DNA of 64,000 nt from a virus, in the IMG/VR virus record IMGVR_UViG_3300031965_000004, positions 1-64,000 of that record; one strand, written 5' to 3'. Made by a program: the position numbers and the translations under genes. Positions 410-53,584 of this stretch are shown here, piece after piece. A model generated the notes under the pieces. The model was not told the origin of the DNA. It made no database searches and was given only the letters and a program-made list of their open reading frames with translations. Position 1 is the stretch's first letter; each line of letters begins with the position of its first letter.

Positions 410-825
410 TTCTTAATCAAGCCCTTGATCGCCAAGTAGCCGATCCCCCCCGCGGCTGCCACGGACCCGATCACGAGCAACGGGAACAGGTTGAAGCGCG
501 GCGGGCCGTAGGGCGCGAGCTGGACGGGGCCAGCGGGCGTCTGAACTTCCACCGTGGGGCGAATGATGTTCTTCAGCACCCACTCGCTGAGCCCGGACGT
601 GGGGCGAGTGGGCGCGTTGGGGTCGTAGGTGAAGTCAGGCGTGATCTGACTTCGGATCGTGACCGAGCGGAACGTGCTTGTCGCCATGTTGCCTGCGAAC
701 GTGGCCAGCGCGGAGGAAGCGCCCAGCCCCGAGGAGACGCGAGCGAGGCGCAGGTCTTGCTGCGCCACGGCGACCTCTCGGGGCGTGGGAATGTGCGTTC
801 GGTCTACCTGCATGTAGTCGATCAT
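406..825 (-). CDS. Small membrane protein with GLG motif and C-terminal TM plus basic tail (putative virion membrane protein)
   Basis: RVSSGLGA motif; C-terminus LFPLLVIGSVAAAGGIGYLAIKGLIKK; GGAG SD; CTAC promoter upstream. Confidence 0.75.
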   Translation of the reverse strand: MIDYMQVDRTHIPTPREVAVAQQDLRLARVSSGLGASSALATFAGNMATSTFRSVTIRSQITPDFTYDPNAPTRPTSGLSEWVLKNIIRPTVEVQTPAGPVQLAPYGPPRFNLFPLLVIGSVAAAGGIGYLAIKGLIKK

Positions 826-38496: not shown

Positions 38497-39087
38497 GTGG
38501 CTTGGCTAGAAATGGGGCTTGGCGCTTTCGAGCCGGTCCAGGCCCAGGACGACTTCTCCTACTCCGCGGAGCGAGGGATTTCTCAGGTCTACAACCCCTT
38601 CGTTGTGGTTGAGACCTTCATGGATCCGCTTGGCACGTCCCGTGGCAGCAAGAAAAGAAAGAAGCGCGAGCAAGCCGCAGCCGCTGCGGCTGCTGCTGCC
38701 GCCAAGCGGCAGCAGCAGCAGCAGCAGCGCCTAGAGCAGCAACGTGCCCAGGAAGCGTTGAGCCAGGCTCAACGAAGGGTTGGTGTCGCTCTAGGCGCTG
38801 CCGAGTCGATCCTTGGCTGGATCAGGGAGTCGGCGAGGTCTCTCGTGATCTTCGCGGCGGTTCGTCGCTCCCTCGACGAGGCGCAACTCGCTTCGCAGGC
38901 GATCAAGTTGGCAGACAAGGCGGAAGAGGAGGCAGGGCAACTCCTGTATCAGAAACTGCCAAACAGCGTCGCCGCAGCAAACGCGATGGCTTCGGGCCTG
39001 GACGAGTTGGTGAGGCGGCTCGGTGCCGTTGCAGCGGGCATTGAGAGGATCGAGTTTGAGATCAAGCTCCGGGCGCTCCGCGCGTGA
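38497..39087 (+). CDS. Coiled-coil protein with N-terminal MGLG motif
   Basis: GTG start; MAWLEMGLGA. Confidence 0.7.
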   Translation: MAWLEMGLGAFEPVQAQDDFSYSAERGISQVYNPFVVVETFMDPLGTSRGSKKRKKREQAAAAAAAAAAKRQQQQQQRLEQQRAQEALSQAQRRVGVALGAAESILGWIRESARSLVIFAAVRRSLDEAQLASQAIKLADKAEEEAGQLLYQKLPNSVAAANAMASGLDELVRRLGAVAAGIERIEFEIKLRALRA

Positions 39088-39410
39088 ACGACGCCGAGAA
39101 GCGCGAGCACGCGCAGCAGCTCTATGAGACGTTCTGCACCGCGACCGACAACCTCGCTCGAGGCATGCTCGCGCTCGGTGAGCGAATGGAGCAGAGCCAC
39201 AAGCTGAAGGTGATCGAACTCGACGAAATGCGCGCTTCACGGGAGCAGGCCGCAGCTCTCCAGCGACAGGTGGGAGTCCTGGTCGAGGTGATCTCTCGAG
39301 CGCAGGGGATCCCGGTCCAGCCGATCTCAATGCCTATGCAGCATCCCAACGCCCACATGCAGAACATGGTGAATGGAGCTCTGCGAGGGTTGTTCGGCGG
39401 CGGGGCCTAA
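39084..39410 (+). CDS. Hypothetical coiled-coil protein
   Basis: Coupled GTGA start. Confidence 0.7.
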   Translation: MNDAEKREHAQQLYETFCTATDNLARGMLALGERMEQSHKLKVIELDEMRASREQAAALQRQVGVLVEVISRAQGIPVQPISMPMQHPNAHMQNMVNGALRGLFGGGA

Positions 39411-39422
39411 AGCGTGCGTGCG

Positions 39423-39447
39423 CTACTCCGGGGGTCAAAGGTAGGCT
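39423..39447 (+). promoter_or_regulatory. CTAC-N15-TAGGCT promoter
   Basis: Exact motif upstream of the virion operon. Confidence 0.7.
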
Positions 39448-39475
39448 GACAGGGGTTGGCGAGGAGACCCCTCCT

Positions 39476-40090
39476 GTGGCTTATTTGGGCGCAAACGAAC
39501 TGCACGATCTCATGACGCGCCCGGGAGCCGGGCACGCGGCCGGTATGACAGCTCCTCGCGTCGAGCGCATTCAGATCCCCGAGGGACACGCGGGGACCGT
39601 CGTGACGCTCCAGGTCATGCAAGACGCGGTCGGTGGCGGCGAGGGCGCGCACAACACCGAAGTCCGCCACCTCGCCATGAAGATCGTTGAGGGGTTGCCG
39701 CCCAAAGCCTACGAGCGCGAGGTCCGCGCGATCTACGACTTCATGCGAGAGCACGTCCGCTACACGCTGGACCCGCGCGGGCTCGAGTGGGTCCAAACGC
39801 CCTGGTATACGCTTCTCGTGGCCGGAATGGGCGATTGTGATGACCACGCGGTCGCAATCGTCGCGCTTGCGATTTCGCTGGGCCACGGGGCCGGATTCCG
39901 AACGGTCAAAGGCGATCCGTCCCGCCCGGACGAGTGGTCGCACGTCTACCCCATAGTAGGGATTCGAGAGCGCGGCATTCCGCGCTGGATCCCGATTGAC
40001 ACCACCGAGGTGAGCAATCCTCGGTTCGGGCAGGACCCGCCGGGTGCTGACCGTGTTCCGCAAAAGAACTGGGTAATCGCCCCGGCGTAA
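39476..40090 (+). CDS. Transglutaminase-like cysteine protease (putative maturation protease)
   Basis: GDCDD, SHVY and WIPID give a Cys-His-Asp triad. Confidence 0.85.
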   Translation: MAYLGANELHDLMTRPGAGHAAGMTAPRVERIQIPEGHAGTVVTLQVMQDAVGGGEGAHNTEVRHLAMKIVEGLPPKAYEREVRAIYDFMREHVRYTLDPRGLEWVQTPWYTLLVAGMGDCDDHAVAIVALAISLGHGAGFRTVKGDPSRPDEWSHVYPIVGIRERGIPRWIPIDTTEVSNPRFGQDPPGADRVPQKNWVIAPA

Positions 40091-40099
40091 GGATTCAGT

Positions 40100-41887
40100 A
40101 TGTCTAGCCTGAGTTTTGAGCAAAGCATGATGGCCCTCGGCGGGCGTATGCAGAACGTGTTCCCGCAGGTCCCCTACGGGCGAGGCATGGGAGACGCCCG
40201 GAGCGAATCCTATGGGCGCGCGCGAGAGGAGTGGAGACGCGCGGTTCCGATCGCGGACGGCTACGTCGTCGAAATCCAGCGCTCGATCAAGGCGTTGCGA
40301 GACCGGCGAGACGCCTACCAGAACGCTGCAATCGCAATGGAGCGTGACCTCGGCCCGGTCGGCGGATACCAGATCCAGCAGGTCGCGGGGCAGATCGTTG
40401 GTCTCTCGAGCCAGATCAGCGACATGATCGACCAGATTGAGCCCGCGTTCAATCGCTTCAACAGCGCGTATCAGGGGTGGCGGTCCATGTCAGGCGACTC
40501 GTCTTGGCTCACGGCAGAGCAAGCCAAGGCGGCCGAAGGTCCCTATCCCGGTAATGGAGGCGACTGGGTCGTCAGCAAATTCGCCGCGATCGCGTCGTTG
40601 GCGGCCAACACCAACACGGTCCTGCGCGACCTCGAGGCGAACTACCAGGCCCTCCAGAGCCAGGCCCAGCAGGTCAACGAGGCCAAGCAGAAGCAGGCTC
40701 GCGAACTCCAGCAGATCGCCGACGATCAGGCTCGAGCGGCGAAGCAGGCGGCGGAGGACGCACAGGTGCAGGCCGACGCGAGGAACGCTGCTGCCCTGGC
40801 GGCGCAGCAAGCGGCGGCAGCGCAAGCCGACGCTCAGGCGCGGGTCGAGTTGGCCCGGATCCAGGCGCAGCAAGCTGCTAGCGCCGGCGAAGCGGAGCGA
40901 GCGCAAGCCGACCGGAACATTCAGCTCCAGATCGAGCAGCAGCGCCTCGCGCAGGAGGCCGCGCTTCAGGAGACGTTGTTCGCGCTCAAGCAGCAGGAGG
41001 CGCAGCGGGCCTACGAGCGCGAGGAGCGCAGTTCCGAGCGCCAGGAGGAGCGCGACCAGCTCGCCTTGATCCTGCAACTCATGGACAAGGGCCTGATCCA
41101 GCCGGGACAGGTTGAGCTCGAGGGCATTGGGCCGCTCGGCGCCCCTCAGGCGCAAGGCGCGAACTACCAGGGCGCCGCGAACTACCAGGGTGGGCCGGTC
41201 CCGCTCGGATACCAGTTGATCGACGAAATGACGGGCCAGCCTGTCCAGCAGGGCTACCCTGGGGGCCAAGTCTACCCGGGCTACCCGGCTCCGATGCAGT
41301 CCTACGGCTACCCGGGCACGCCAACCTACGGGCCCCCGCCCGTCGTCGCTCCCGCCCCGCAGCAGCAGCAGCAGGCCCCGCAGCAGCAGGGCGGGATCCC
41401 CGGGATCGAATTCGGCCCGCTCGACGTGGGCCGCGAGTTGTTCGGCATGGGCGGCATGGGGGACGGCGAAGCTGTCTCCTTGCCCGCAGGCGCGAAGGTC
41501 GCGCCTGGCTACCTCATGTCGCCAACCGGCACGGGCAACTGGACGGTCACAGCGCCAGACGGGCGACAGTTCTACACCAGCAACGCCCAAGTCACGCAGC
41601 CTGGATCGGTCCAACTCCTCGACCCGCCGGCCGGCGTGATCTTCTACAGCAAGCCCGACGAACCGTCCATGTGGGACTCGATCGCCAAGGGCCTCAACAC
41701 GATCACCCCGTTTGGGGTGAAGGCCGCCGATTCCTACCTGCGCGCCGAGCGAGGCGAGTCCCTCCTCTCGCCTCAGCAACCACAAGGTGGCGGTGGGATC
41801 AGCGGCACCACGCTCGCGATCGGCGGGGCCGTGCTCCTGGGGATCGCGGGCGCCGTCGTCTTTGCCACCCGCAAGAAGGGGGACTAG
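40100..41887 (+). CDS. Long coiled-coil virion membrane protein with GMG motifs and C-terminal TM
   Basis: RGMGD, GMGGMGD; ends LAIGGAVLLGIAGAVVFATRKK. Confidence 0.8.
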   Translation: MSSLSFEQSMMALGGRMQNVFPQVPYGRGMGDARSESYGRAREEWRRAVPIADGYVVEIQRSIKALRDRRDAYQNAAIAMERDLGPVGGYQIQQVAGQIVGLSSQISDMIDQIEPAFNRFNSAYQGWRSMSGDSSWLTAEQAKAAEGPYPGNGGDWVVSKFAAIASLAANTNTVLRDLEANYQALQSQAQQVNEAKQKQARELQQIADDQARAAKQAAEDAQVQADARNAAALAAQQAAAAQADAQARVELARIQAQQAASAGEAERAQADRNIQLQIEQQRLAQEAALQETLFALKQQEAQRAYEREERSSERQEERDQLALILQLMDKGLIQPGQVELEGIGPLGAPQAQGANYQGAANYQGGPVPLGYQLIDEMTGQPVQQGYPGGQVYPGYPAPMQSYGYPGTPTYGPPPVVAPAPQQQQQAPQQQGGIPGIEFGPLDVGRELFGMGGMGDGEAVSLPAGAKVAPGYLMSPTGTGNWTVTAPDGRQFYTSNAQVTQPGSVQLLDPPAGVIFYSKPDEPSMWDSIAKGLNTITPFGVKAADSYLRAERGESLLSPQQPQGGGGISGTTLAIGGAVLLGIAGAVVFATRKKGD

Positions 41888-41889
41888 CC

Positions 41890-42165
41890 ATGTCGTCCTA
41901 TGGAATCGGCGCGTTGACCGCTGCGGGCGCAGAGGTTGATTCCACGCCAGGGCGAGAAGATCTTCTCGCGCAAATGCCGGGGTTCGGTCCGTTGCCGTCA
42001 GACGTCTACAGCGCGAGTAGCCACGCTGACCAGTCCGCGTTGGAGCTCCTCAGCTCCGTTGGCCAGGCTCGTGCAGCCAGGACAAGCAAGGTCGGCGCGG
42101 TCGTGGCGGCGGCGGCGGTCGTGGCGGCGGTCGCTTGGTTCTTCGGACGCAAGAAGCGGAGGTAG
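41890..42165 (+). CDS. Small membrane protein (GIG motif, C-terminal TM)
   Basis: MSSYGIGA...VAAVAWFFGRKKRR. Confidence 0.75.
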   Translation: MSSYGIGALTAAGAEVDSTPGREDLLAQMPGFGPLPSDVYSASSHADQSALELLSSVGQARAARTSKVGAVVAAAAVVAAVAWFFGRKKRR

Positions 42166-42167
42166 TC

Positions 42168-42332
42168 ATGCTTCAGCCCATGTATGGATCGCCTGGCGGT
42201 TACGCCGGGATCAACGGCTGCGGCTGCGGCATGCGCGGCCTCGGCGCCACTGAGGGAGGTGTCAAGCCGGTCTTGGTCGTCGCCGGCCTCGCGCTCGCGC
42301 TCTGGCTGTTCCTCCCCAAGGGCGGTCGGTGA
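42168..42332 (+). CDS. Small membrane protein (GLG motif, C-terminal TM)
   Basis: GMRGLGA...LALALWLFLPKGGR. Confidence 0.7.
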   Translation: MLQPMYGSPGGYAGINGCGCGMRGLGATEGGVKPVLVVAGLALALWLFLPKGGR

Positions 42333-42892
42333 GCTACGTTTACACGGGGCAGGCGGGGCTAGGCGGAGAGGCCGCCGACGCCTTTCTCTCCTTCTTTGGC
42401 GTTGGCAACGAGACGGAAGCGGAGCGGCTCGCACGAGAGAGCGCGAGCGCTCCGCCGTCAACGAAGGCCCAAGAGACCACGTCCAACGCGGAGGCGATTG
42501 CGTCGCTGCAAGCGCAACGGACTACCGCGCTCGAGTTGGCGCTTGCGTTTCCCCAGCAGACGCACTATGCCGAGCGCGCCAAACAACTCGAGAGCCAGAT
42601 CATTGCCCTCGGAGGTTGGCCGGCCGCGCCCCCCACGCAAATGGCCTCGCGCCCCTCTCAAGCGGTCACCGTCCAGCAGCCGGACAAGCCGAGCGCCCTG
42701 ACCGCCATGTTCGCCGCGAGCCAAGAAGCTCGAGCGGCGCGTCAGCGTGCCGACCCGGGCTCCATGATGTCGTTGCTCGGACCCATGAACGTCACGGGGG
42801 CGTGGAGCACCACCGCCAAGGTCGGGGTCGGCGTGGCGGGTGTCGCCGCGCTCTCGCTCGGTCTCTACCTCGCGCTGAGGCCGAAGTCATGA
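42329..42892 (+). CDS. Membrane protein (GLG motif, C-terminal TM)
   Basis: MSYVYTGQAGLGG...LGLYLALRPKS. Confidence 0.75.
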   Translation: MSYVYTGQAGLGGEAADAFLSFFGVGNETEAERLARESASAPPSTKAQETTSNAEAIASLQAQRTTALELALAFPQQTHYAERAKQLESQIIALGGWPAAPPTQMASRPSQAVTVQQPDKPSALTAMFAASQEARAARQRADPGSMMSLLGPMNVTGAWSTTAKVGVGVAGVAALSLGLYLALRPKS

Positions 42893-43239
42893 GCTACGTC
42901 TACACGGGAATGGGGGAGGGGGAGGCCGGCGGCGGGGACTTCTTCGGCGGGATCATTGGCGGGATCGGCAAGATCATTGAGCCGCTCGCCATAGGCGGGG
43001 TCATGGCCTACCAGACCTACGCCGACGATCGCGGCCAGACGCGCGACCTCAAGGCCCAGCGGGCCATGGCCGCGCAGGTCGCTGAGATCCGTCAGCGGGA
43101 GGCCGGGCTGTCAGCGGAGCTGGCGACGGCGCTGGCGCCCATGCGTCAGGAGCGCTTCAAGTTGATCGCCGGCGGCGCCGCGTTGCTGGGGGCGATCGGA
43201 CTCGCGGGGTTCTTCGTGCTGAAGGTGAAGAAGAGGTGA
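42889..43239 (+). CDS. Membrane protein (GMG motif, C-terminal TM)
   Basis: MSYVYTGMGE...AGFFVLKVKKR. Confidence 0.75.
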   Translation: MSYVYTGMGEGEAGGGDFFGGIIGGIGKIIEPLAIGGVMAYQTYADDRGQTRDLKAQRAMAAQVAEIRQREAGLSAELATALAPMRQERFKLIAGGAALLGAIGLAGFFVLKVKKR

Positions 43240-43535
43240 GCGTTGATCGAAACTGGCTCGCAAACGTCCGCCTCGCCAACCGAACGCAGCTCGGGTTGGC
43301 GGGCATGGGCGCCACGGTCTCCGAGCAGATCGCTGCCGACTACGAGCGGAGGCGAAACGCCGGGCCAGCTCCTCTTCTCGGCGCACCTGTTCCAGCCCCC
43401 ACGTCAGGACCTGCCCCAGGGCCTGCCCCCGTTTCTTTCGTCCAATCGAACCTTCCGCGCTACCTCGCCTACGGCGCGGGAGGCGTGCTCGTGTTGGCCC
43501 TGGGCTTCGTCGCCTGGCGCACGTTCAGGCGGTAG
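43236..43535 (+). CDS. Membrane protein (GMG motif, C-terminal TM)
   Basis: LAGMGA...LGFVAWRTFRR. Confidence 0.75.
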   Translation: MSVDRNWLANVRLANRTQLGLAGMGATVSEQIAADYERRRNAGPAPLLGAPVPAPTSGPAPGPAPVSFVQSNLPRYLAYGAGGVLVLALGFVAWRTFRR

Positions 43536-43537
43536 CC

Positions 43538-43966
43538 ATGGGCCTGTTCAGTTATGACGAGCTCTCGCGCGGTCTCGGGAACGCTGAACTAGAGGCGGTC
43601 CGGGCGCGGACCGATACCGCCTGTGTCACGCCCGGCTCGCCCGAATGCACGGCGGCTCGGGCCGAACTCTCTGTCTGGGAGGTCGAGTTTGCCAAGGCCG
43701 GGAAAACGGCGACGTCGGGGCCCGCGCCAAGCGCAGCTCCGCAACGGTCGTTCGTCGAGCGTTGGGCCGAACTCGAGGCCGCGTTCTTCCCGCCCCTGCC
43801 CCCCCAAGGACTGGTCCAGCAGGCGCCGCCCCCGCCCCCTCCCCCTCCCGCCCCCGCCCCCGAGCCTGCGCAGCCCCAGGTCGTCATCATGCCGGCGGCA
43901 GCGGCTGGCGGCGGGATCGCGTTGATCGCGCTCGCGATCGGCCTCTACGCGGTGCTGAAGAAGTGA
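43538..43966 (+). CDS. Membrane protein (GLG motif, C-terminal TM)
   Basis: SRGLGN...IGLYAVLKK. Confidence 0.75.
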   Translation: MGLFSYDELSRGLGNAELEAVRARTDTACVTPGSPECTAARAELSVWEVEFAKAGKTATSGPAPSAAPQRSFVERWAELEAAFFPPLPPQGLVQQAPPPPPPPPAPAPEPAQPQVVIMPAAAAGGGIALIALAIGLYAVLKK

Positions 43967-44127
43967 ACGACCCACGACGCATTGACGCCGGCGCTCAGGA
44001 CGAAGTCCGGATGCACTTGGAGAAGAAGAAGTCCCGACGAGCCGCATGGTGGGCCCTATCCCTAGTCGGTGTCGCAGCGCTAGGATCGGCGTTGTGGCGC
44101 AACTACGTCGCCAGGAGTGACGCATGA
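43963..44127 (+). CDS. Small membrane protein
   Basis: Coupled GTGA start; AWWALSLVGVAALGSALW. Confidence 0.65.
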   Translation: MNDPRRIDAGAQDEVRMHLEKKKSRRAAWWALSLVGVAALGSALWRNYVARSDA

Positions 44128-44879
44128 GTCTGAGCATGAGTGATTTGGGCTTAGGCGAGTCGCTCCGGCTCGGCCCTCAGTTTGCGCCCGTGCCTCAAGG
44201 CACACGCCTGCGCGTGATCCAGCGAGGACCTCACGGAGCCAGTCTCGCGCCCCGCCCGCCCTACACGCCCGAAGGCGGGTTCCAGTGGTGGAGCGAGCAA
44301 GTCGCCCCCGACCCCTGGCAGCCACAACAGAGCGTGGTGGGGTTCATGGGCCTAGGCGCGGAGGGCACAAAGCCAGAGGCCACTTACGCGGTCAAGCGAG
44401 ACGTTGAGCGCGAGTCCAAGCGCCTCGCCGCGGATTCAGTCAACCCTCCGCCACACATGATCCAGCCGCTGATCGCTCAGGCGCAGGGGGTCCTTGGGCT
44501 TCTGAACGGTCACCGTGCGTGGTCGTCAGGCTGGCACTTGGGCTTCTGGGGGCGAAGCAGCCAAGAAGACCGAGCCGACCTCCAGGTCGCCCTTCAGAAC
44601 CTCACGCGCCGCCAGTCGGATCCCATGACCGTGACGAAGCAGCCAATGCAAGACGCGAAGAGAACAGGCGACTTCGCGTGGGGCGAGACGACGGCGCGAG
44701 CGGGGACCTTGGCAGAGAAGACGGCTCGAGTGATCGAAAACGCGGGTGGGGCGGCGAGTTCGATCCTCGACAGCCCCAAAGCGACGGCGGCGGTGGTCGT
44801 CCTGCTCGGGCTCGTGGGCCTAGGCGTCCACGCCTACGCGTCAGGCAAGGGCTCCGGGCCCACGATTCGGGTCGGGTAG
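44124..44879 (+). CDS. Membrane protein (two GLG motifs, C-terminal TM)
   Basis: DLGLGE, FMGLGA; AAVVVLLGLVGLGV. Confidence 0.75.
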   Translation: MSLSMSDLGLGESLRLGPQFAPVPQGTRLRVIQRGPHGASLAPRPPYTPEGGFQWWSEQVAPDPWQPQQSVVGFMGLGAEGTKPEATYAVKRDVERESKRLAADSVNPPPHMIQPLIAQAQGVLGLLNGHRAWSSGWHLGFWGRSSQEDRADLQVALQNLTRRQSDPMTVTKQPMQDAKRTGDFAWGETTARAGTLAEKTARVIENAGGAASSILDSPKATAAVVVLLGLVGLGVHAYASGKGSGPTIRVG

Positions 44880-44884
44880 TCGCC

Positions 44885-45637
44885 GTGAGCTCCTTCACCA
44901 TGGCTGACTTCGGGCTCGCCGGTCGCGGCTGGGACGACCCTTGCGGACGCTCCGCTAGCTGCCCCCCGATCGTCATTCAACAGGGGTGCTGTCCTGTCAC
45001 GGGGCGACCCCTTGGGCAGCCCTGGGGTCCCGCGGGGTATTCTCGTCCCTCGACGGTGACCCCGGGGCCTGCGCCCTCGGGGATTCAGCCTCCGCCTCAC
45101 GTCCGCGACCCTCGAGTCCAGCCTCCGCCCGCGCAGGACCCCAGGGTGCAACCGCCTCCGGTCCTCGACGATCCGCGCGTCCAGCCGCCGCCAATCACGA
45201 CTCCTCCGCCGGCCGTTGCACTTCCGCAGCCGCCGGCCGGGGTGCCGGGTAGCGGCGGGATCGCGCTTCCGCGGAGCTTCGTCCCCGCCGGCGGGTTCGT
45301 CGCCCCAGGCGCCACGGGTTCGATCCCGTTCAGCGCTCCGCTCGAGGCCACGTCCACAGCACAAGCGCCTGCGGACCCGAGCCTGCTCGTCTTCAAGGAC
45401 GCCTGGAAGGACATGCAGACCGCGACGCCGCCAGGCGGGCTGGACCTCGCCGCGATCCAGAACAGCGGGCGCAAACAGGCAGTCCCAGGCGCCCAGGGCG
45501 GCTACATGCCCGCCCAGAGCGGGTCGTTGAGCGTGGCTGGGCTAGGCAGCCTTGCCGCCCTCACCTCGAGCGGGTTCTTCGACGTGCAGGCCAGGCCGGG
45601 GGTCGTGCCCTTCGGGTTCCGCGGGGAGCGCTTCTAG
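44885..45637 (+). CDS. Pro-rich protein with DPRVQPPP repeats
   Basis: GTG start; three DPRVQPPP copies; AGLGS. Confidence 0.7.
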   Translation: MSSFTMADFGLAGRGWDDPCGRSASCPPIVIQQGCCPVTGRPLGQPWGPAGYSRPSTVTPGPAPSGIQPPPHVRDPRVQPPPAQDPRVQPPPVLDDPRVQPPPITTPPPAVALPQPPAGVPGSGGIALPRSFVPAGGFVAPGATGSIPFSAPLEATSTAQAPADPSLLVFKDAWKDMQTATPPGGLDLAAIQNSGRKQAVPGAQGGYMPAQSGSLSVAGLGSLAALTSSGFFDVQARPGVVPFGFRGERF

Positions 45638-46762
45638 GTGGCCTACGCCCGCGTCAGCAACCCGTTCTTCGCACCGCCGGCCGTGAGCTACGCCAACCCG
45701 GGCGTCGACCGGGAGACGTTGCCCCTGTTCACCGACGTGGGCCCCTACCAGATCCGCTACTTCCGCCTGCCGGGCATGGCAGGGATCGGCTGGGAGGTCG
45801 TTCACTTCTTGGGCGGGCCCGTGTTCTGGCCTGGTGGCAAAGAGGAGATGTGGTCCCCTCCAGGCCAAGGCGGGTCGAGGACGGTCGCCGGCGCCGAGAA
45901 GGCCGCTCGAGCGGCGATTGCCGACCTCGCTCCCCAACCGCGCAAGCGGAGCTGGGAGGTCCGGGTCAACAAGAACCCGGCGCAGAGCGACTTCGAGGTG
46001 TTCCTGATCCACAAAATCAGTGACTTGCTCGAGGGCGTTCGGGACAAGGTGCTTGACGGAGTCCCGTTCTGGGACACGTCGCCTCTGGTCGTTGCGGCGA
46101 TGAAGGTGATCGACGCGCACGCAGACACGTTGAATCCGCATGACCCCCACTTGAGGAGCGCTCGGGAGTTCATGGCTCGAGCGTGGCACAACTCGGCTTC
46201 TGGCGGCTCGGCGCGTGGCACGGTCTGGGCGCTCAACCTCGCCGCGAACAACCTCCATCACTACGCGCAGGGCTGGGTCAACGCGACGCGGAGTCTTCGG
46301 AACCCGTTCTTCGCGCCACCGGCCGTGAACTACACCCAGAACCCGCTCTGCGAGCCCAACCCAGAGGTTCACCGCTACGTCGTGAAGGACAAGTCGGGCC
46401 GCCCCGTGGCTCGGCTCCAGGCATACAACTTGGACGACGCTCGCCAGCGCGCAGCTTCGCACGGATTCTCTGGGCGCAAGTTCCGGGTCAACCGCGAGGG
46501 CGCCAAGGCCAACCCTGGCGGGAAGGTGTTCTACGTCTACGTCCAGGGCGAGCCGGATCCGATCGGGTCGGTCCAGGCGAAGACGGAGCGCTCAGCTCTG
46601 ACGCAAGCCCGCAAACGCTTCGGGCGAAGTGACTTGACCGTCGTCGACGAGGCCGGCGCGCACACCCCCGGACAAATGTTCGCAGCCAGTGCGGACTTGA
46701 CGGCCGAGGACGAAAAGCGACTCAAGCGAGAAGCCACCGGCGGCCAGGGGTTCCTTTTCTAA
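45638..46762 (+). CDS. NP-segmented multidomain protein
   Basis: 8 NP motifs; duplicated NPFFAPPAV.Y block. Confidence 0.75.
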   Translation: MAYARVSNPFFAPPAVSYANPGVDRETLPLFTDVGPYQIRYFRLPGMAGIGWEVVHFLGGPVFWPGGKEEMWSPPGQGGSRTVAGAEKAARAAIADLAPQPRKRSWEVRVNKNPAQSDFEVFLIHKISDLLEGVRDKVLDGVPFWDTSPLVVAAMKVIDAHADTLNPHDPHLRSAREFMARAWHNSASGGSARGTVWALNLAANNLHHYAQGWVNATRSLRNPFFAPPAVNYTQNPLCEPNPEVHRYVVKDKSGRPVARLQAYNLDDARQRAASHGFSGRKFRVNREGAKANPGGKVFYVYVQGEPDPIGSVQAKTERSALTQARKRFGRSDLTVVDEAGAHTPGQMFAASADLTAEDEKRLKREATGGQGFLF

Positions 46763-48120
46763 TGCCGCTCCTCGCCTTCGTCTCCAATCCTCCTCGCCAC
46801 CCGCGCTCCCGGCGGGCGTCTCCGGTTCGTCGGGAAAACCCCCTAAAGTTCACAGGGCCAAGCCTGACGTTGATGCCGTTTAACCCCTTCCAGAAGGTTT
46901 CGATCGACTTGTTCGGGGCCAGCTTCCAGCCGGTGGCTGGGAAGCCGGCGCAGAGCAACCCCTACAAGCAGACGGGGGCTTATTGGGAGGTCCCTGAGCG
47001 ACTCTGGCCGGACAACATGAAGCCGAAAGACTTCGACGCCTACGTGCAGACCCGGCACGGGTTGGACGTTCGCGAGCTGGTCGAGGGGCGCTTTAAGGTT
47101 CCGGGATACAACACGCCCGACGAGCGGATCATTGCCGTCAACGAGAGCCGCGCGTCGCGCGGGCTGCCTATGCTCACGCACGAAGAGTGGCGACGTTGGG
47201 TGATCCTCGACGTTGTTGGACAACTCTACGAGGAGGAGGAGATCGCGCAGTCGGATCGGCGTTCGCGCAAGGACCCCGAGTTTGCGACGGGTCCTCTCGT
47301 CATGCCTCGTGCGCGCACCACCCGGCGAGAGGGCGGGCCTGGCCGGAGCGCCCCCTCGCGCTCGCGCGTTCCTTCGCGGGCGCCACTTGCCGAGGACCGA
47401 GAAGCTCTTGGGCTTGCACGGAAGGAGGCCGAGCGGGCCGTCGAAGAGGAACGTCGCCTGCGCATTGCTGCCATGCGTGCGGAGCTCGAGCGCAGGCAGG
47501 CCGCGCGCGAGGCGGGGATCACGCGCGAGGGCACGGCCAAGGCGGCTGCCATGCTGCGCGGACTCGTCGCCGCCTACCGCGGCCAACGCGACGAGCTCGC
47601 CGAGGCCATAGGAATCAGTGAGCAACGCCTGACCGACTTTCTCGTCGGGCGCTACGCAATCCCAGGCGTTGTAGTCCAGCGGATTGACGCCCTGGCGAAC
47701 AAGCACGGGGTCCGGGTTGCAAACCCGGCCACAATGCCCCGCCAGCGCAACCGTGACCACCGTTGGCGCGAGCCGCCAGAGGAGGAGGAGGTCTCGCTCG
47801 ACGAAGTCAAGCACCTCCCGGGTTACGCGAAGGCGCTCAAGCAGTTCAAGCGCTTCCACAAAACGGACCCGCAAGTCGCCCGGATCATTCGCGTCCCTGA
47901 CGGTCGCAAGAAGACGAGTCTCGCCAACGGTGGCGTCCACGTCTTCCTTGGGCACAGGGAGCAAACGCCGTATACCGTCCCGTTCGGCTCGAAGAAGGAC
48001 ACTCGCTGGTATCACGACCACCCTGAAGGTGATCGTCCTTCGATCCTCCTCGACCCCGCGACGGGTCTCGTTATGGACGTGGGCGGGACCTACATGGTCG
48101 ACGACTGGTTCTATTCGTGA
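46762..48120 (+). CDS. NP-segmented multidomain protein including an XRE-like HTH
   Basis: 5 NP motifs; RDELAEAIGISEQRLTDFLVG; C-terminal FKRFH..WYHDH..GGTY domain. Confidence 0.75.
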   Translation: MPLLAFVSNPPRHPRSRRASPVRRENPLKFTGPSLTLMPFNPFQKVSIDLFGASFQPVAGKPAQSNPYKQTGAYWEVPERLWPDNMKPKDFDAYVQTRHGLDVRELVEGRFKVPGYNTPDERIIAVNESRASRGLPMLTHEEWRRWVILDVVGQLYEEEEIAQSDRRSRKDPEFATGPLVMPRARTTRREGGPGRSAPSRSRVPSRAPLAEDREALGLARKEAERAVEEERRLRIAAMRAELERRQAAREAGITREGTAKAAAMLRGLVAAYRGQRDELAEAIGISEQRLTDFLVGRYAIPGVVVQRIDALANKHGVRVANPATMPRQRNRDHRWREPPEEEEVSLDEVKHLPGYAKALKQFKRFHKTDPQVARIIRVPDGRKKTSLANGGVHVFLGHREQTPYTVPFGSKKDTRWYHDHPEGDRPSILLDPATGLVMDVGGTYMVDDWFYS

Positions 48121-48141
48121 GCAGCCAGATAGGGTCTGGCG

Positions 48142-48166
48142 CTACCCCCGCCTCGACGTGTAGGTT
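48142..48166 (+). promoter_or_regulatory. CTAC-N15-TAGGTT promoter
   Basis: Exact motif upstream of the core/capsid unit. Confidence 0.7.
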
Positions 48167-48217
48167 TTCTCTAGGGGGGGTTCCCCTCCTGCTTGCACCT
48201 CTCGACTGAGGGTCGGA

Positions 48218-49573
48218 ATGCTCGAATTCGTAGTGCTCAACCCCCTCGGGGCGAAGGCCGGATCAAGAAAGAGGGGCTCAATGGCCACCAAGAAGAAGCG
48301 CCGGCCGACCCGCCGGGTTGTCAAGAAGAAGGCGACTCGTCGCCCCGCCGCCAAGAAGAAGACCGTCCGTCGCAAGAAGGCGACCCGGCGTCCGGCCGCC
48401 AAGAAGAAGACCGTCCGTCGCAAGAAGGCGACCCGGCGTCCGGCTGCCAAGAAGAAGACCGCCCGGCGGCGCAACCCGGTCGCCAAGAGGATCAAGGCCG
48501 GGATCGCTTCCGGCTGGCGCCCGACAGCAGCGCAGCGCCGGGCCATCGCCCGCGCCAAGGCCACCCGTAAGGCGAAGCGCACGACGGCCCAGCGGCGCGC
48601 GTCTGCGCTGAAGGTGAGCTACTCCAAGCAGAGTCCCTCGCGCGAGAAGAAGTGGAATGCATACAGCGCAGCGGCCCGGGGTGCTGGCAAGAAGCCGGTG
48701 CGGAAGTCGTCTGTCAAGCTGCTCGCAGGCTACCCCATGAGCAAGGCGCGCCGGGCGAAATACATTCGCGAGGGCAAGCTGTCCTCGCGGGGGCATGCGA
48801 ACCCGCCCAAGCGCCGCAAGAAGGCTCGTCGGAAGAACCCGAGCATTCAGAGCGCGTTCCGCCAGCTCGGTCAGGCGAACTTCTGGATCTCAGGCGGTCA
48901 GGCCGTCGCCGGTATCAGCGCCGTCGTCGTCCTGCCTTCGGTGATCGAGCAAGTCGCGGCCAAGCTGGGCGCCGGTGCCTACGTCCGCAACTCCGGTGGC
49001 ATGGGCGTGGCTCTGGCCGCGGTCTCGACTGCCCTGGCCATGTTCGGCGCGCAAGCCGTCGAGAACATGGCGATCAAGCGTGGGATCGCGCCCAAGGCGT
49101 TCAACGGTCTGTCGACTCGCGTCGCTCTCGGTGGCGTGATCGTGACCGTGCTCAAGGGGCTCGAGGTCTTCGCGCGCGGCTTCCACAGCCGCCTCAATCT
49201 GCCGACCGTCCCGGCCCCGTTCATTCGGGTCCCGGGGATCTCGGCAGCGCCCGCGCCAGCTCCGAGCAACGCTGTGTCCGATTGGGTGCAGCTCAAGGGC
49301 ATGGGCGACTGGATGCAACTCCAGGGCATGGGCCTCGGCGGCATGAGCGGCATGAGCGGCATGAGCGGCGTCGAAATGCCCGACCAACTGGTCCTGGGCG
49401 AGTCCTTCGCTCGCTCGGTGTCTCAGTTCGACGGAATCGGTGACTACCGGATCCCCATGAACTCGATCCGCGGCATGGGCGACTATGTCGGCACGGCCCA
49501 GCAAGCCGGTGGAGCGCTCACCATGAGCGCTCCGCAGCAGAATTGGGAGCCCTCTCCCCTCGAGACGTTCTAG
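48218..49573 (+). CDS. Putative core/DNA-condensing membrane protein: histone-H1-like repeats, hydrophobic segments, G[MI]G repeats
   Basis: KKATRRPAAKKKT x3; 4 NP motifs; about 3 hydrophobic helices; GMGD, GIGD and MSGMSGMSG. Confidence 0.75.
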   Translation: MLEFVVLNPLGAKAGSRKRGSMATKKKRRPTRRVVKKKATRRPAAKKKTVRRKKATRRPAAKKKTVRRKKATRRPAAKKKTARRRNPVAKRIKAGIASGWRPTAAQRRAIARAKATRKAKRTTAQRRASALKVSYSKQSPSREKKWNAYSAAARGAGKKPVRKSSVKLLAGYPMSKARRAKYIREGKLSSRGHANPPKRRKKARRKNPSIQSAFRQLGQANFWISGGQAVAGISAVVVLPSVIEQVAAKLGAGAYVRNSGGMGVALAAVSTALAMFGAQAVENMAIKRGIAPKAFNGLSTRVALGGVIVTVLKGLEVFARGFHSRLNLPTVPAPFIRVPGISAAPAPAPSNAVSDWVQLKGMGDWMQLQGMGLGGMSGMSGMSGVEMPDQLVLGESFARSVSQFDGIGDYRIPMNSIRGMGDYVGTAQQAGGALTMSAPQQNWEPSPLETF

Positions 49574-49739
49574 TCTCGACCCTCCACTCAGAGCGGGGCT
49601 GGCAGGACCTGCTCTGAGTGACCACTCCTCAGCCGAGGTGACGACCACCCAAACACCGGACGTGTCCACTACGGACTCGTTCGCGTTGTCGTCACGAAGG
49701 TGACCCGGACTCCGGGCCCTACAACTGAAGGAGGCTGTC

Positions 49740-50435
49740 ATGGCCCTGAAGATCGTTCCCATTCCGGCCGTTGGCGCGGTCGGCTCCCGCCCGCGGAAAG
49801 AGCCTATCTACGACACAGAGCGCTACACCGGTGGTGTCGCGCCTCCCACGTCGATCAGCCTCTTCAACAACTTCTCGGCGTTCAGCAACCCGCTGGGTGC
49901 GCTCCTCGTCGGCCCCGCGGTCGGTGGCACGCTGACGAAGACGTTCTCGCGGGACACAAACCTCAGCGGGCAGCAGGGTTTGCCGGCAGCTCATCACCAC
50001 TACTGGTTCGCGATGCGCTGCAAGATCCGCTCGATGGAGTGCGACCTGTCGCAAGCCACCGCGGCGCGGGTCCCCGAGCAGCTCAACCGCCTCCGCGAGC
50101 TGAGCGCGGTCCAGTTCCGGTTCGCCTCGAGCGAACTTTTCAACTGCCAACTGGACGAGATCCCGAACGGAACGGGACCCCAGCACATCGCCACGACGCA
50201 CACCGGCGTCACGGCTCTGTCGCTGCCGAGCGGCGTCCCAACGCGCTCCAACGCCAAGGACGTCACGATCAGCGGCAAGCCCGTCGAGATCGTCGCGCTC
50301 GAAAGTTTTCGAGTGGACATTCTCACCGGCCAGGCCGGTGCGGACCCCCTCACGGGAACGGCGTTCAGCCTCATCACGGACCTCTACCTGACGATCGTGC
50401 TCGAGGGCCTGCTATTGCGCGGGATCACCGGCTGA
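49740..50435 (+). CDS. Candidate major capsid protein (jelly-roll-like)
   Basis: Strong AAGGAGG SD, strong terminator after it, beta-rich; PIYDT..LF..KT..DTNL...GLP pattern; follows the core protein. Confidence 0.55.
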   Translation: MALKIVPIPAVGAVGSRPRKEPIYDTERYTGGVAPPTSISLFNNFSAFSNPLGALLVGPAVGGTLTKTFSRDTNLSGQQGLPAAHHHYWFAMRCKIRSMECDLSQATAARVPEQLNRLRELSAVQFRFASSELFNCQLDEIPNGTGPQHIATTHTGVTALSLPSGVPTRSNAKDVTISGKPVEIVALESFRVDILTGQAGADPLTGTAFSLITDLYLTIVLEGLLLRGITG

Positions 50436-50472
50436 GGGTCTTCTTCAACCCATTGCGGGTTGGGGATTTACG

Positions 50473-50511
50473 AGAGAGGCTTCCTCGCTGAGGGAGCCTC
50501 TCTTCGTTTGT
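50473..50511 (+). terminator. Intrinsic terminator
   Basis: 14-bp stem AGAGAGGCTTCCTC/GAGGGAGCCTCTCT followed by TCGTTTGT. Confidence 0.8.
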
Positions 50512-50567
50512 GGAAGGTCTTCTTGTCGGACCTGTGCCTATGCTTCCCGGTGGCCAGGGGAGGCGCT

Positions 50568-52169
50568 GTGGACAAGCAGAAACGCCGGCAGCGGAGACTC
50601 AAGATCAAGCCGCAGGGGTGCATGTCGCGAGATAAGGCGTGGCTGTTGGGCTTCATGGCGGGTGACGGAAACGTGAGCGTGGCAGAAGACGGCGGCGCCC
50701 ATGTGTCAGCCAACTGCGGAGTCGCGGAGGACTCCGCCAACATGGCGCTGGCTGAGCGCGTTGCGGAGCTTTTCCGGAGGATCTACGACGTCCCCGCTCA
50801 CGTCCGGGTTCAGTCCCGGGATCCGGGGCGCCTTCCTTACTGCCAGCCGATTCTTTATCGGCGGGCAGTCGCTGACGACATACTGTCGCACGGTCCGATC
50901 GGGACTTACGATTGGACCGTTCCGGCGGAGGTTCGGCGAGACAAGGAACTCGCTGGGGCGTGGCTGTCAGGCTTGTGGGACGCAGAAGGAAACGTCTCCC
51001 TTGATCCTGACGTCTCGAGGCGAACGGTCAGCGTCAGCAGCGTGAACGAGCTTGGTTTGCGCGTGGTGAAGGCCATGGTCGAGTCGCTCGGGATTCGCTG
51101 TTCGTGGCATACGGACGACGGCAAGTCCGAGAGGAGCCCCGGCTGCCTGCCGGAGAACAAGGTGATGGTGTGCAGCCAGGCAGCCATGGGGGGCTTCGCC
51201 GAGAAAATCGGGTTCACCCACCAGGGCAAGGCGGCGAGTTTGGCGAGCCTGCTCGCGAGCTATAGCCGCGAGGTGCCTAACCTCCTGTCGCACGAGGTTA
51301 GAGAGTTGCTCCCCGAGATTCTGAAGCGGCGCGCAGCGGGGGCCCCGTTCTCGGCCATAGCGACGGAGTTGCAGTTTTCAACGCCAGAGGTGGCCAAGGG
51401 AATGGTCAAGCGGGCGTCGAAAGCCGCAGGCAATCAGTGCCTGATTTGCCTCGAGCGTCCTGCAACGCATTCGATCCCGCGAGTCATCAAGGGGCGGTCT
51501 GGTAAATACGTCTGCGAGCCGTGCCTGGTCTCTCTTGAGCCTGCCGAGGCTGTCCCCGAGTGGGGCGACGAGCTCGTGAAGCAGTCCGCGCGAAAGGTCG
51601 CTGACTTCTTGGACGAGCACCATTACCTCGGGCGTCGCGGCGGCGTGAGCGACTTCGCACTGCGCAACGCGGCCGGCGTCCTCGTCTTCTCACGCCGGCC
51701 GCAAGCAGCCGGCTTGCCGCGGGATTGGTTGGAACTGTCTCGGTGGTGCCTGGTCCCGGGCGGCGTCAACGTAGGCACCGCTCAGTGGGCGCAGGTCAAG
51801 CGCTGGTTGCTCGAGAACACGGACGCATCGACCGTCGTCAGCTACAGCGATCCGGCCCGACACGACGGGGCGATCTACCGGGCCGCCGGGTGGCTCTGGG
51901 CGCCTTCGTCCAGCTTCCTCTTGAAGAACATGAAATTGAGCGGAGAGCGCTACCCAGAGAAGCCCTACACCGACAAGAACCGCTGGGTCTACCCGCTCAG
52001 GCGAGACGAGCGCCGGGCTGAGGCGTTGACCGTCCGAAACCCGTGGCTCTGCAACAGCGAGCGCTACAAGTTCCTGTGCGACTGGCCCGAGCCGACGTGG
52101 AAGCGCGGCCGAGCTACAGGAGGGGGCAAGGACTACAAGCGCTGGAAGGCGCTTCTCGCTTCTCGCTAG
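50568..52169 (+). CDS. LAGLIDADG endonuclease-like domains fused to a Mom-like GNAT DNA-modification domain
   Basis: WLLGFMAGDG and WLSGLWDAEG; FLDEHHYLG, ELSRWC, VVSYSDP..HDGAIYRAAGW. Confidence 0.8.
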   Translation: MDKQKRRQRRLKIKPQGCMSRDKAWLLGFMAGDGNVSVAEDGGAHVSANCGVAEDSANMALAERVAELFRRIYDVPAHVRVQSRDPGRLPYCQPILYRRAVADDILSHGPIGTYDWTVPAEVRRDKELAGAWLSGLWDAEGNVSLDPDVSRRTVSVSSVNELGLRVVKAMVESLGIRCSWHTDDGKSERSPGCLPENKVMVCSQAAMGGFAEKIGFTHQGKAASLASLLASYSREVPNLLSHEVRELLPEILKRRAAGAPFSAIATELQFSTPEVAKGMVKRASKAAGNQCLICLERPATHSIPRVIKGRSGKYVCEPCLVSLEPAEAVPEWGDELVKQSARKVADFLDEHHYLGRRGGVSDFALRNAAGVLVFSRRPQAAGLPRDWLELSRWCLVPGGVNVGTAQWAQVKRWLLENTDASTVVSYSDPARHDGAIYRAAGWLWAPSSSFLLKNMKLSGERYPEKPYTDKNRWVYPLRRDERRAEALTVRNPWLCNSERYKFLCDWPEPTWKRGRATGGGKDYKRWKALLASR

Positions 52170-52198
52170 GCGTCAGAGGAGCCAATTCCCCCCTCGCG

Positions 52199-52223
52199 CT
52201 ACCTCGGGGGGGGAGGCTACGAT
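52199..52223 (+). promoter_or_regulatory. CTAC-N15-TACGAT promoter
   Basis: Exact motif upstream of 52280. Confidence 0.7.
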
Positions 52224-52279
52224 TCAAGGGCCGGAGCCTCGAGCTCCAATGCTTTCGCACCCAGCCCCTTCGGAGCACC

Positions 52280-53584
52280 ATGACGACACAAGCATCTGAA
52301 GACTGCTGCTCACTGTGCGGGCCGTTGGCGAGCATTCAGCCCACGGTCATGACGGAGCAGGGCGAGAAGCTGAACCCTCTGTTCGGCATGGTGAAGCAGT
52401 TCACGCTCACGTCGGAGACGGTGAGTCTGGCCGCTGGCGAACGAACCGATCTCAGCCTCGTCGTCGAGGCCGAAGAAAACGACCTGGGCGACCTCGTCGT
52501 CTCCGAGCTCATTGTGCAGGGCGTGCCCGCCACGGCTCGCTTTGCGATCCAAATCAAGTCGCGCCAGAACGACAAGATTTTCAGCAACGTGCTGATCCAA
52601 GACCGGTTCATTGCGACCAATGCGCAGCTCTGCGACCGGCTCCCGTGCTGCTTCTTCATTCGCGCGACGCAGTTCCTCCAGGTCACGGTCGAGAACCTCG
52701 AGGCCGTCTCCGCCACGTTCAAGCTGGGCGCGCGCGGGACCCGGTTTCTGCCCTACGGCGCCGAGCAATACCGGGCTCAGCTCCTGAGCTACTACAACCA
52801 GCAGCGCAAGACGCCGTTCTGGCTCGGGATTGATCGCGTCCAGGGGACGGCGGTCACGCTCGTGGCCGGCGGAGGCGTGTCCATCCCAGCGAACACGCTC
52901 GCGACCGTCTTCATGACCGTGCCCGGCGGCGGAGACTTCGTTGCGGAGGGGCGCCCGCTCGCGATCGTCGACGGCGGCCCAGCCGACGAGATCACCTGCC
53001 AGTTCAAGGAGGGCGCGTCGGGCCGAGCCCTGAGCAACGAGCGCCAACCCCTGGGGACGTTCGTCGCCAAGGTCAACTCGGCCGTGACCGGACTTCAGGG
53101 AGGGGAACTGCGCGCCGCGGCCCTGCGGGGCTGCAAGATCCGCCAGTTCTTCAAACGCAACACTCGCCTTCGCGTCGAGCTCGAGAACACGGCCGGTGGC
53201 GCCCGCACGGTCTTCCTGGCCTGGCCAGGCTGCATGCTCTACTACGACGAGTGCGGGGCGGGCGGCGGCATGGGCCAGGCACGTAGCCTCGAGCCGGTGA
53301 TCGGGCCGAACTTGATGCACGTCCCAGCCTGCCCACCCATGGTCGCGTTCGACCCGCAGGCGGGACCGCAGCCGGCAGGGCTGCCGCAAGGCGTCGCGCC
53401 GGGCCAGTTCCTCCCAGGCGGAGGGGCCACGACAGGTGACGGTCAGCGAACGACCATGCAGCAGTTCCTCCAGAGCCAACAGGGCCAATACGCCCGGAAG
53501 ACGTGGAACGCGGAGAATCTCCGCGCGCACGGCTACATGCAGGGCATGGGCGGGGGCGTCCAACTGCCTGACGGGGGTCGGTAG
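52280..53584 (+). CDS. Candidate capsid protein with two tandem homologous beta-sandwich domains
   Basis: Internal repeat: FSN..FFIRATQFLQVTVENL..TFKLGARG versus LSN..FFKRNTRLRVELENT..TVFLAWPG; C-terminal GMG. Confidence 0.6.
   Translation: MTTQASEDCCSLCGPLASIQPTVMTEQGEKLNPLFGMVKQFTLTSETVSLAAGERTDLSLVVEAEENDLGDLVVSELIVQGVPATARFAIQIKSRQNDKIFSNVLIQDRFIATNAQLCDRLPCCFFIRATQFLQVTVENLEAVSATFKLGARGTRFLPYGAEQYRAQLLSYYNQQRKTPFWLGIDRVQGTAVTLVAGGGVSIPANTLATVFMTVPGGGDFVAEGRPLAIVDGGPADEITCQFKEGASGRALSNERQPLGTFVAKVNSAVTGLQGGELRAAALRGCKIRQFFKRNTRLRVELENTAGGARTVFLAWPGCMLYYDECGAGGGMGQARSLEPVIGPNLMHVPACPPMVAFDPQAGPQPAGLPQGVAPGQFLPGGGATTGDGQRTTMQQFLQSQQGQYARKTWNAENLRAHGYMQGMGGGVQLPDGGR

Follow-up and report, generated by a model that had tools for sequence, protein, structure and literature searches.

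A glycine-based motif at the termini of unrelated putative particle proteins in a large bacterial virus, and a neighbouring transglutaminase-fold enzyme that may act on it

What does a tripeptide of the form G-[ML]-G signify when it recurs near the ends of one protein after another within a single gene module of a virus? This question is raised by a stretch of 64,000 nucleotides (the window), which comprises positions 1 to 64,000 of IMG/VR record IMGVR_UViG_3300031965_000004, a single linear virus sequence of 94,429 bp and an estimated completeness of 74% (G000). In a preliminary description of this DNA it had been proposed that the motif marks propeptide removal or assembly recruitment of virion membrane proteins, with the protease encoded at the head of the same operon. 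All motif instances listed there are present in proteins of the window. As judged from sequence comparison, the motif is a real, selected signal that marks the termini of about a dozen unrelated, presumably particle-borne proteins, because it is enriched in one module alone, lies near termini, is tied to tail anchors and is kept in distant orthologues. We favour the reading that it is a short linear assembly signal and that the leaders bearing it are trimmed by a transglutaminase-fold enzyme encoded next to them; this combined reading is given a probability of roughly 40%. The proteins concerned, with their lengths in amino acids (aa) and the residue number of the first Gly of the motif, are the following.

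38497..39087 (+): soluble coiled-coil-like protein; GLG at residue 7, or at residue 2 when counted from a start at the ATG at 38512
39476..40090 (+): enzyme with a transglutaminase fold and a candidate cysteine protease, encoded immediately ahead of the tagged proteins
40100..41887 (+): 595-aa tail-anchored protein; GMG at 29 and GMGGMG at 449-455 (first Gly 449 and 452); transmembrane (TM) segment 567-591 plus basic tail
41890..42165 (+): 91-aa tail-anchored protein; GIG at 5
42168..42332 (+): 54-aa tail-anchored protein; GLG at 24
42329..42892 (+): 187-aa tail-anchored protein starting MSYVYTG; GLG at 10
42889..43239 (+): 116-aa tail-anchored protein starting MSYVYTG; GMG at 7
43236..43535 (+): 99-aa tail-anchored protein; GMG at 23
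43538..43966 (+): 142-aa tail-anchored protein; GLG at 12
44124..44879 (+): 251-aa tail-anchored protein; GLG at 9 (leader) and 76 (end of the conserved N-terminal domain)
48218..49573 (+): protein of basic repeats and central TM segments; C-terminal GM[GSNR]-D-[WFY] units within residues 361-421
52280..53584 (+): 434-aa capsid protein; motif at 422
406..825 (-): 139-aa tail-anchored protein outside the module; GLG at 33

The abundance of the motif was assessed with our own gene list, which holds 125 proteins for G000; the module was taken as 38.3-53.6 kb (21 proteins, 5094 aa). The enrichment test for which the preliminary description had called gives a clear excess. G[ML]G occurs 22 times in the module as compared to 5.72 expected from per-protein composition (Poisson 1.8e-7), six of the module hits falling in the 48218 protein alone and thus being non-independent, whereas the remaining 104 proteins of G000 show no excess (22 versus 19.24, P 0.29). 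By middle residue, the module holds 12 GMG (1.15 expected), 10 GLG (4.57) and 5 GIG (1.92). None of 3000 full shuffles of the module proteins reached 22, the top shuffle giving 15. Most other G-x-G triplets are found at about expectation, with GGG (12 versus 5.91) and GCG (2 versus 0.52) mildly raised. The coding frame holds 27 occurrences, with varied codons, as compared to 3 and 1 in the other two frames, which rules out a motif at the DNA level. A Met-rich metal-binding motif was dropped as well, since Leu freely replaces Met. It was also observed that the Leu of G-L-G uses rare codons more often (CTA 5 of 28, as compared to 3.6% of all Leu codons; CTG once).

The motif goes together with a particular protein architecture. 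Each of the eight consecutive genes 40100-44879 encodes a protein with one C-terminal hydrophobic segment and the motif at residues 5-29; these proteins have a single C-terminal hydrophobic helix and no signal peptide and were on this basis classed as tail-anchored by our own crude hydropathy windows, which underlie all TM assignments given here. The preliminary description had spoken of one TM helix plus a basic tail: the helix is found in eight of eight proteins and a short basic tail behind it in seven, whereas in the 44124 protein it is followed by some ten residues that include one Lys and one Arg. Since the genes of this run abut or overlap (stop/start spacing 0-2 nt), their N-termini are reliable; a possible 38-aa gene at 44011-44127, inside the run, lacks the motif. 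Throughout G000, the motif lies within the first 35 residues in 11 of 19 C-tail-anchored proteins, one of these being a false positive (the GIG of a C5 methylase), versus 3 of 106 others (Fisher 1.2e-8, classes by hydropathy). Shuffling the ectodomains of the tail-anchored class gave a mean of 1.16 and a top of 6 in 5000 runs. The N-terminal position that had been claimed for nearly all bearers thus holds for the 40100-44879 run, whereas the 48218 and 52280 proteins carry the motif C-terminally. Overall, it is placed in flexible N-terminal leaders of 1-30 residues on at least eight mutually unrelated tail-anchored proteins, and further in the tails of the capsid and 48218 proteins as well as at two joints between domains.

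An all-against-all BLASTP comparison of 38 module proteins from three viruses returned cross-genome pairs alone and hence no paralogy among the bearers. As described before, the 42329 and 42889 proteins do share their start. Sortase, exosortase and prepilin-type signals were rejected on reading the sequences by eye, as there is no consistent motif ahead of the C-terminal helices and no hydrophobic stretch behind the tag. Three further occurrences were judged coincidental: a GGGMGQ inside the capsid protein, a GLG of the 58562 protein (residue 13) that is absent in L001 and L002, and the GMG at residue 117 of the 39476 enzyme, next to its catalytic Cys, where relatives have GKE and GSG.

The shape of the motif was derived from 50 G[MLI]G instances in the three viruses. 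The middle residue is L in 24, M in 21 and I in 5 cases, and the residue following the motif is most often D (11), A (10) or G (8). Two residues ahead of the first Gly, M, I or L is found in 27 of the 50 instances, the background rate being 13.7% (P 2e-11), with no excess at -1 or -3. By this analysis the fuller motif reads (M/I/L)-x-G-[LM]-G and has D, A, G, N or E behind it; the remaining 23 instances lack M/I/L at -2. The fuller form is formally equal to the type-1 site of the adenovirus protease, (M/I/L)XGX|G, e.g. IVGL|G of pVI (PMC4246237), and the earlier suggestion of an adenovirus-like site is borne out to this extent.

Relatives of the window were recovered from viral contigs by alignment-based scans; single-sequence scans with the enzyme or the capsid protein found none. 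They comprise G001, a complete virus of 245,276 bp with terminal repeats, G002, a contig of 190,544 bp from a metagenome-assembled genome, and three short contigs. Gene order is common to the window, G001 and G002, with an identity between window and G001 of about 49-50% for the enzyme and ~33% for the capsid protein. We take the three to be distantly related members of one family of large bacterial viruses whose capsids are of the double jelly-roll type. In G001, where 348 genes were called with our own gene caller, the 24 module proteins contain 26 G[ML]G as compared to 5.71 expected (P 4.8e-10) and the other 324 proteins 54 as compared to 41.97 (P 0.04); an N-terminal motif is present in 9 of 28 C-tail-anchored proteins versus 15 of 320 others (Fisher 2.2e-5).

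Furthermore, the motif is kept across the three viruses in four families, namely 40100 (both sites), 42889, 43236 and 44124, while the length of the preceding leader varies. Both motif sites of the 40100 protein are also kept in its homologue P0017 (62% identity). The G001 and G002 orthologues of the 43236 protein keep G-M-S-G-L-G. In the 42889 family, in which leader lengths vary as well, the G002 protein (BLASTP E 5e-6) keeps GMG and the G001 protein GLG, the latter being tied to the window protein via G002 only (E 3e-14). The positional counterpart of the 38497 protein in G001 has a similar leader with G-L-F, and the S-G-L-G-A of the 406-825 protein is kept in the G002 homologue and absent from that of G001. 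Conservation in homologues, on which the preliminary description had made its proposal depend, is therefore seen both in the orthologues of G001 and G002 and in the larger family of the 44124 protein.

For the latter, an exhaustive HMMER search yielded 58 homologues at E <= 1e-3. The alignment has 52 members; P0018, P0020, P0043, P0066, P0072 and P0075 (short or partial) and P0037 (a 789-aa repeat match) were omitted. Site 2 closes the conserved N-terminal domain in the context W-x-P-x-Q-x-V-V-G-[VL]-[ML]-G-[LM]-G, and in the 50 anchored rows its first Gly is present in 50, L or M in 47 and the second Gly in 43. Site 1 lies in a leader of the type M-S-x-x-M-x-E/D-L-x-G-L-G-D, immediately ahead of the core L-R-V-G-P-Q, and takes these forms:

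exact motif: 18 of 52, plus P0023, recognized by eye and missed by the anchor
degenerate motif: 7 of 52
x-G-F, two residues shorter: 16 of 52
at most four residues ahead of the core: 8 of 52
unclassified: 2 of 52, one of them without a core anchor

As the eight members of the fourth group have next to nothing ahead of the core, the leader lies outside the folded domain. One homologue, P0025, starts like the unrelated 42889 protein of the window.

Two families carry the motif at the C-terminus. In that of the 48218 protein, one to three units of the form G-M-[GSNR]-D-[WFY]-x-E-[LF] are kept in six genomes or contigs, the first Gly lying at positions 361, 370, 372, 406 and 419 of the window protein. 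This protein starts with three near-identical Lys/Arg-rich repeats (48218-48600), which are followed by the central TM segments and the tagged tail, and from its sequence it looks like a DNA-binding membrane protein. In the capsid-protein family, 8 of 15 members have the motif in their last 45 residues (shuffle mean 1.8, top 6 in 2000 runs). G001 has two tandem capsid-protein paralogues (L001 9848-11392 and 11393-12892), both with the motif at the C-terminal end. Outside the window, an N-terminal TM protein (G000 81068-81499, - strand; L008 18068-18499) has the C-terminus G-M-G-V-S-G-M-G-G-E-G-F and thus ends in Phe as does the 48218 family; this query found no homologue in G001 or G002. A patatin-like phospholipase gene abuts the gene of a 75-aa membrane protein that has a long basic tail and carries the motif at residue 20 (G000 91736-92901, - strand; L009 13736-13963 and 13960-14901).

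The label of virion membrane proteins depends on the type of virus. The 434-aa protein has 15 homologues, and its AlphaFold model (predicted local distance difference test, pLDDT, 72) consists of two beta sandwiches followed, from residue 325 onwards, by a disordered tail. Comparison of the model with known capsid proteins gave the following values.

STIV major capsid protein: Z 10.8, root-mean-square deviation (rmsd) 4.7, 231 residues aligned
PRD1 P3: Z 10.2, rmsd 4.5, 237 residues aligned
PBCV-1 Vp54: Z 9.2
PM2 P2: Z 8.5
phiCjT23: Z 8.1

Cellular double jelly-roll proteins reach Z scores similar to those of the viral ones, and Foldseek alone was unclear. On the strength of the model, we assign the 434-aa protein to the double jelly-roll capsid proteins. 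To our knowledge, all cultured prokaryotic viruses with such a capsid have an inner membrane. Because the capsid protein is of the double jelly-roll type, it is plausible that an inner membrane is present and that the tail-anchored set represents virion membrane proteins; the capsid fold and the run of tail-anchored proteins would together point to a lipid membrane beneath the capsid. A second probable shell component is encoded nearby:

49740..50435 (+): 231-aa probable single jelly-roll capsid or vertex protein, without the motif

It is the best conserved protein of the module (68 homologues, 39-93% identity; AlphaFold2 pLDDT 77) and has only weak jelly-roll Foldseek rows (SPV1 E 0.01, PRD1 P5 E 0.04). 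In contig L004 (3671-4624) its gene is in two pieces about 290 nt apart, for which a frameshift, an insertion or an intron is possible. No terminase, portal or HK97-type family turned up in the Pfam scans of 91 proteins, and there is no Pox_A32 or FtsK_SpoIIIE match for a packaging ATPase in G000, which is linear and an estimated 74% complete.

The product of the gene at 39476 matches the Pfam family Transglut_core (PF01841) with E 7e-8 and 33.1 bits at a cut-off of 23; its G001 homologue scores 22.1 bits, just below this cut-off. A Cys-His-Asp triad (C121, H156, D175) is invariant between the window and G001 enzymes, and the triad motifs are readable in the G002 enzyme on both sides of an insert. 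The gene is syntenic with the tagged genes in G000, G001 and G002. Transglut_core is the sole Pfam match of the protein, and Peptidase_C93 gave none at E <= 10. Six-frame searches of G000 and of the complete G001, which distant folds could escape, brought no match to Peptidase_C5, C48 or C93 at E <= 1, and neither Peptidase_C5/C48 nor other protease families turned up among the 91 Pfam-scanned proteins. A PDB sequence search found no relative of the enzyme among solved structures. Judged by these profiles, the enzyme is not of the adenovirus type, as it has no Peptidase_C5 or C48 match, nor of the LapG type, as it has no C93 match. Of the earlier claim of an adenovirus-type protease at the operon head, the location of a cysteine-protease-fold gene is therefore confirmed in three viruses, and the adenovirus type is not. 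The G002 gene (L015 6899-8908, - strand) contains an in-frame insert of ~310 residues directly ahead of the catalytic Cys. As it matches a Hint domain weakly (E 1.3e-3) and includes a stretch resembling LAGLIDADG, this insert is probably an intein, a type of element that tends to occupy important active sites. A complex prediction with the enzyme, capsid residues 1-330 and residues 1-95 of a 44124-family protein scored 0.01 against a mark of 0.32; run without controls, it is uninformative either way.

According to our favoured reading, the tail-anchored proteins would be inserted into the host membrane such that their N-termini face the cytoplasm, and a patch of this membrane carrying them would become the inner virion membrane, as happens in PRD1. 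The motif leader would mark the proteins for incorporation into the particle, and the transglutaminase-fold cysteine protease would then trim at the motif, as is the case for the capsid-targeting sequences of T4 and the precursors of adenovirus. The cut could fall before the second Gly (G-[LM]|G, the adenovirus type-1 register), which is favoured by the formal identity of the motif with the type-1 site, or behind it (G-[LM]-G|x, with the hydrophobic residue at P2), which is favoured by the preference of papain-like enzymes for a hydrophobic P2. That a transglutaminase fold can yield a site-specific protease is illustrated by LapG, which cuts LapA at 108AA109, a pair of small residues (PMC10990149).

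Several observations weigh against trimming by this enzyme. Position is the sole link between enzyme and motif, and transglutaminase-core proteins may cross-link proteins or act on the cell wall. Tandem copies (GMGGMG, GLGGLG, GMGLGGMSGMSGMSG) are more readily explained by multivalent binding than by one cut. The second Gly of the 48218 family may be S, N or R, with the D-[WFY] after it better kept, the 16 x-G-F leaders of the 44124 family lack this Gly altogether, and some tail-anchored orthologues in G001 and G002 have degenerate forms only (GALG, LGLL). Conserved residues are found behind the motif in the 44124 and 48218 families, and the capsid-protein tail is likewise conserved past it (PDGG...W). 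If 38512 is the start, the 38497 protein would lose four residues only. Finally, four of the eight leaderless 44124 members start with MG[FY] or VGY, and these starts may be start-codon miscalls at the motif's own Met.

Many of these points would be accommodated by the alternative that survives best, namely that the motif is an uncut docking tag whose hydrophobic side chain between the glycines fits a pocket that recurs in the capsid lattice or in a scaffold. Such a tag would tie the membrane proteins, the 48218 protein and the capsid tail to the shell, akin to the cargo-loading peptides of encapsulins. Tandem and multiple copies are in its favour, as are the variants that keep Gly and the hydrophobic residue and lose the second Gly (x-G-F; GM[SNR]DW), the extended unit G-[LM]-G-D-[WYH]-hydrophobic common to the 44124 and 48218 families, the occurrence of the motif at N- as well as C-termini and its enrichment in the disordered tail of the capsid protein. 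However, the binding partner is only hypothetical, the 44124 family has leaderless members, a protease-fold gene is kept at the operon head, and M/I/L at -2 gives the motif a form identical to a known viral cleavage consensus. On balance, docking without cleavage is regarded as somewhat unlikely.

Clearly less probable is a structural or membrane-active role, in which the motif would be a hinge or a Gly-rich loop dipping into lipid, as known from fusion peptides, and would serve membrane remodelling at entry instead of sorting. Some leaders are indeed glycine-rich and hydrophobic (41890; residues 17-40 of the 42889 protein), site 2 of the 44124 protein follows a strand-like V-V-G and may belong to the fold, and the patatin-like phospholipase adjoins another tagged protein. 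On the other hand, acidic or polar residues follow most instances, and the strict preference for L or M together with the -2 position point to protein recognition. Slightly more doubtful still, and in our opinion improbable, is cleavage by another enzyme of host or virus, with the 39476 product engaged in cell-wall or protein cross-link chemistry at entry or assembly. Membrane-containing phage virions carry wall-degrading enzymes, enzyme and motif are linked by position alone, and Pfam assigns the former only to the broad Transglut_core family; arguing against this are the synteny of enzyme and putative substrates in three viruses and the lack of any other protease family in the Pfam scans and six-frame searches described above. 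Chance, the composition of glycine-rich proteins in a genome of 67% G+C, a DNA-level motif or shared descent by recent duplication is highly improbable as an explanation. Gly is indeed common, GGG is also raised in the module and two bearers begin with seven identical residues, but the composition-matched expectation, the shuffles, the lack of excess in the rest of the genome, the frame specificity with varied codons, the lack of paralogy, the repetition in G001 and the conservation in 52 homologues all speak against it.

G000 has a G+C content of 63-69%, and CTGCAG has 0 occurrences in its 94 kb by raw count. Upstream in the window, the Pfam scan identified genes of the phage replication and DNA-modification kind (DpdA, MT-A70, C5 methylase, PD-(D/E)XK nuclease, SNF2-type helicase, HNH). 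Between 36 and 64 kb the genes are densely packed and almost all on the + strand. Six of the 25 proteins scanned there have a Pfam row at E <= 0.01, and three pass the curated cut-off:

39476-40090: Transglut_core
50460-52169: LAGLIDADG and Mom
55773-56621: resolvase

PHROGs matched 4 of the 25 proteins and none of the tagged ones; NCBIfam, PDB sequence and ESM Atlas searches gave no useful match. Among 35 further proteins (63.5-94.4 kb), a TnpB-like domain, DUF7447 and the patatin-like phospholipase were the only Pfam matches. The gene at 50460-52169 fuses a LAGLIDADG homing-endonuclease domain to a Mom-like DNA-modification domain; it sits between the genes of the 231-aa and capsid proteins, and is found at the same place in G001 (51% identity) and G002. 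A serine recombinase of the resolvase/invertase type (55773-56621) lies within the structural module, is kept in L002 and L003, and is located upstream of a 1646-aa protein (58562-63502) whose first 185 residues are conserved; nothing convincing was seen in the way of inverted repeats flanking the recombinase gene.

Adenoviruses and giant viruses have their bacterial kin in the membrane-containing double jelly-roll phages, and we know of no shared sorting tag or maturation protease in the bacterial members. Full-text searches of the literature, supplements aside, listed no paper on large double jelly-roll phages of Planctomycetota or on the tag. Together with the adjoining protease-fold gene, the tag provides a testable way into the question of how the inner membrane of a virus acquires its proper set of proteins, and it bears on whether maturation by proteolysis goes back further, or is spread more widely, in this virus kingdom than has been assumed. 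It also supplies an easily applied sequence criterion by which particle proteins can be recognized in genomes of 94-245 kb that otherwise resist annotation. In its boldest form, the proposal would be that large bacterial double jelly-roll viruses run a proteolytic maturation in which a transglutaminase-fold protease reads the adenovirus-like (M/I/L)-x-G-[LM]-G, strips targeting leaders from at least ten tail-anchored inner-membrane proteins, trims the capsid tail and severs two larger proteins between their domains. We put this forward tentatively, as a possible but rather doubtful extension. If true, this would be the first case of proteolytic maturation among the prokaryotic viruses of the kingdom, and an adenovirus-like code would be served by an unrelated enzyme.

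When compared with known systems, the closest parallel is that of adenovirus and its protease adenain. Both viruses have a double jelly-roll capsid protein, both signals are glycine-based with a hydrophobic residue four places ahead of the (here putative) cut, and the sites lie near the termini of several particle proteins. Adenain sites have the forms (M/I/L)XGX|G and (M/I/L)XGG|X (PMC4246237), and the 27 instances with M/I/L at -2 fit the first of these. Unlike adenain, the enzyme here has a transglutaminase fold with the order Cys-His-Asp and matches neither Peptidase_C5 nor C48; moreover, the host is a bacterium, and tail-anchored membrane proteins make up most of the bearers. In T4, internal proteins carry capsid-targeting sequences that are removed by the prohead protease gp21. 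These are likewise short N-terminal leaders common to unrelated proteins, with particle membership being presumed in our case, and the T4 leader ends in the protease site, which couples targeting to trimming. T4 differs in having an HK97-fold capsid, no membrane, a serine protease and a site that ends in Glu.

LapG, a cysteine protease of the BTLCP (C93) family, has a transglutaminase fold and cuts off an N-terminal module between two small residues (PMC10990149). In contrast to the enzyme described here, which has no Peptidase_C93 match, LapG is periplasmic and calcium-dependent and has one adhesin as substrate. The cargo-loading peptides of encapsulins are short terminal tags with Gly and Leu or Ile that dock many cargoes to one shell protein; unlike the present motif, they are mostly C-terminal and belong to an HK97-fold shell with neither membrane nor protease. 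PRD1, PM2 and their kin share the double jelly-roll capsid fold, as the Z scores for PRD1 P3 and PM2 P2 indicate, and membrane-containing double jelly-roll phages have a run of small membrane-protein genes in the structural operon, as is the case here. A shared leader or a maturation protease is not known to us from phages of the PRD1/PM2 type. Genomes of PRD1, PM2 and the known bacterial viruses of PRD1-like build measure about 10-20 kb, whereas the double jelly-roll capsid protein described here occurs in genomes of 94 kb (74% complete), ~190 kb (a contig) and 245 kb (complete).

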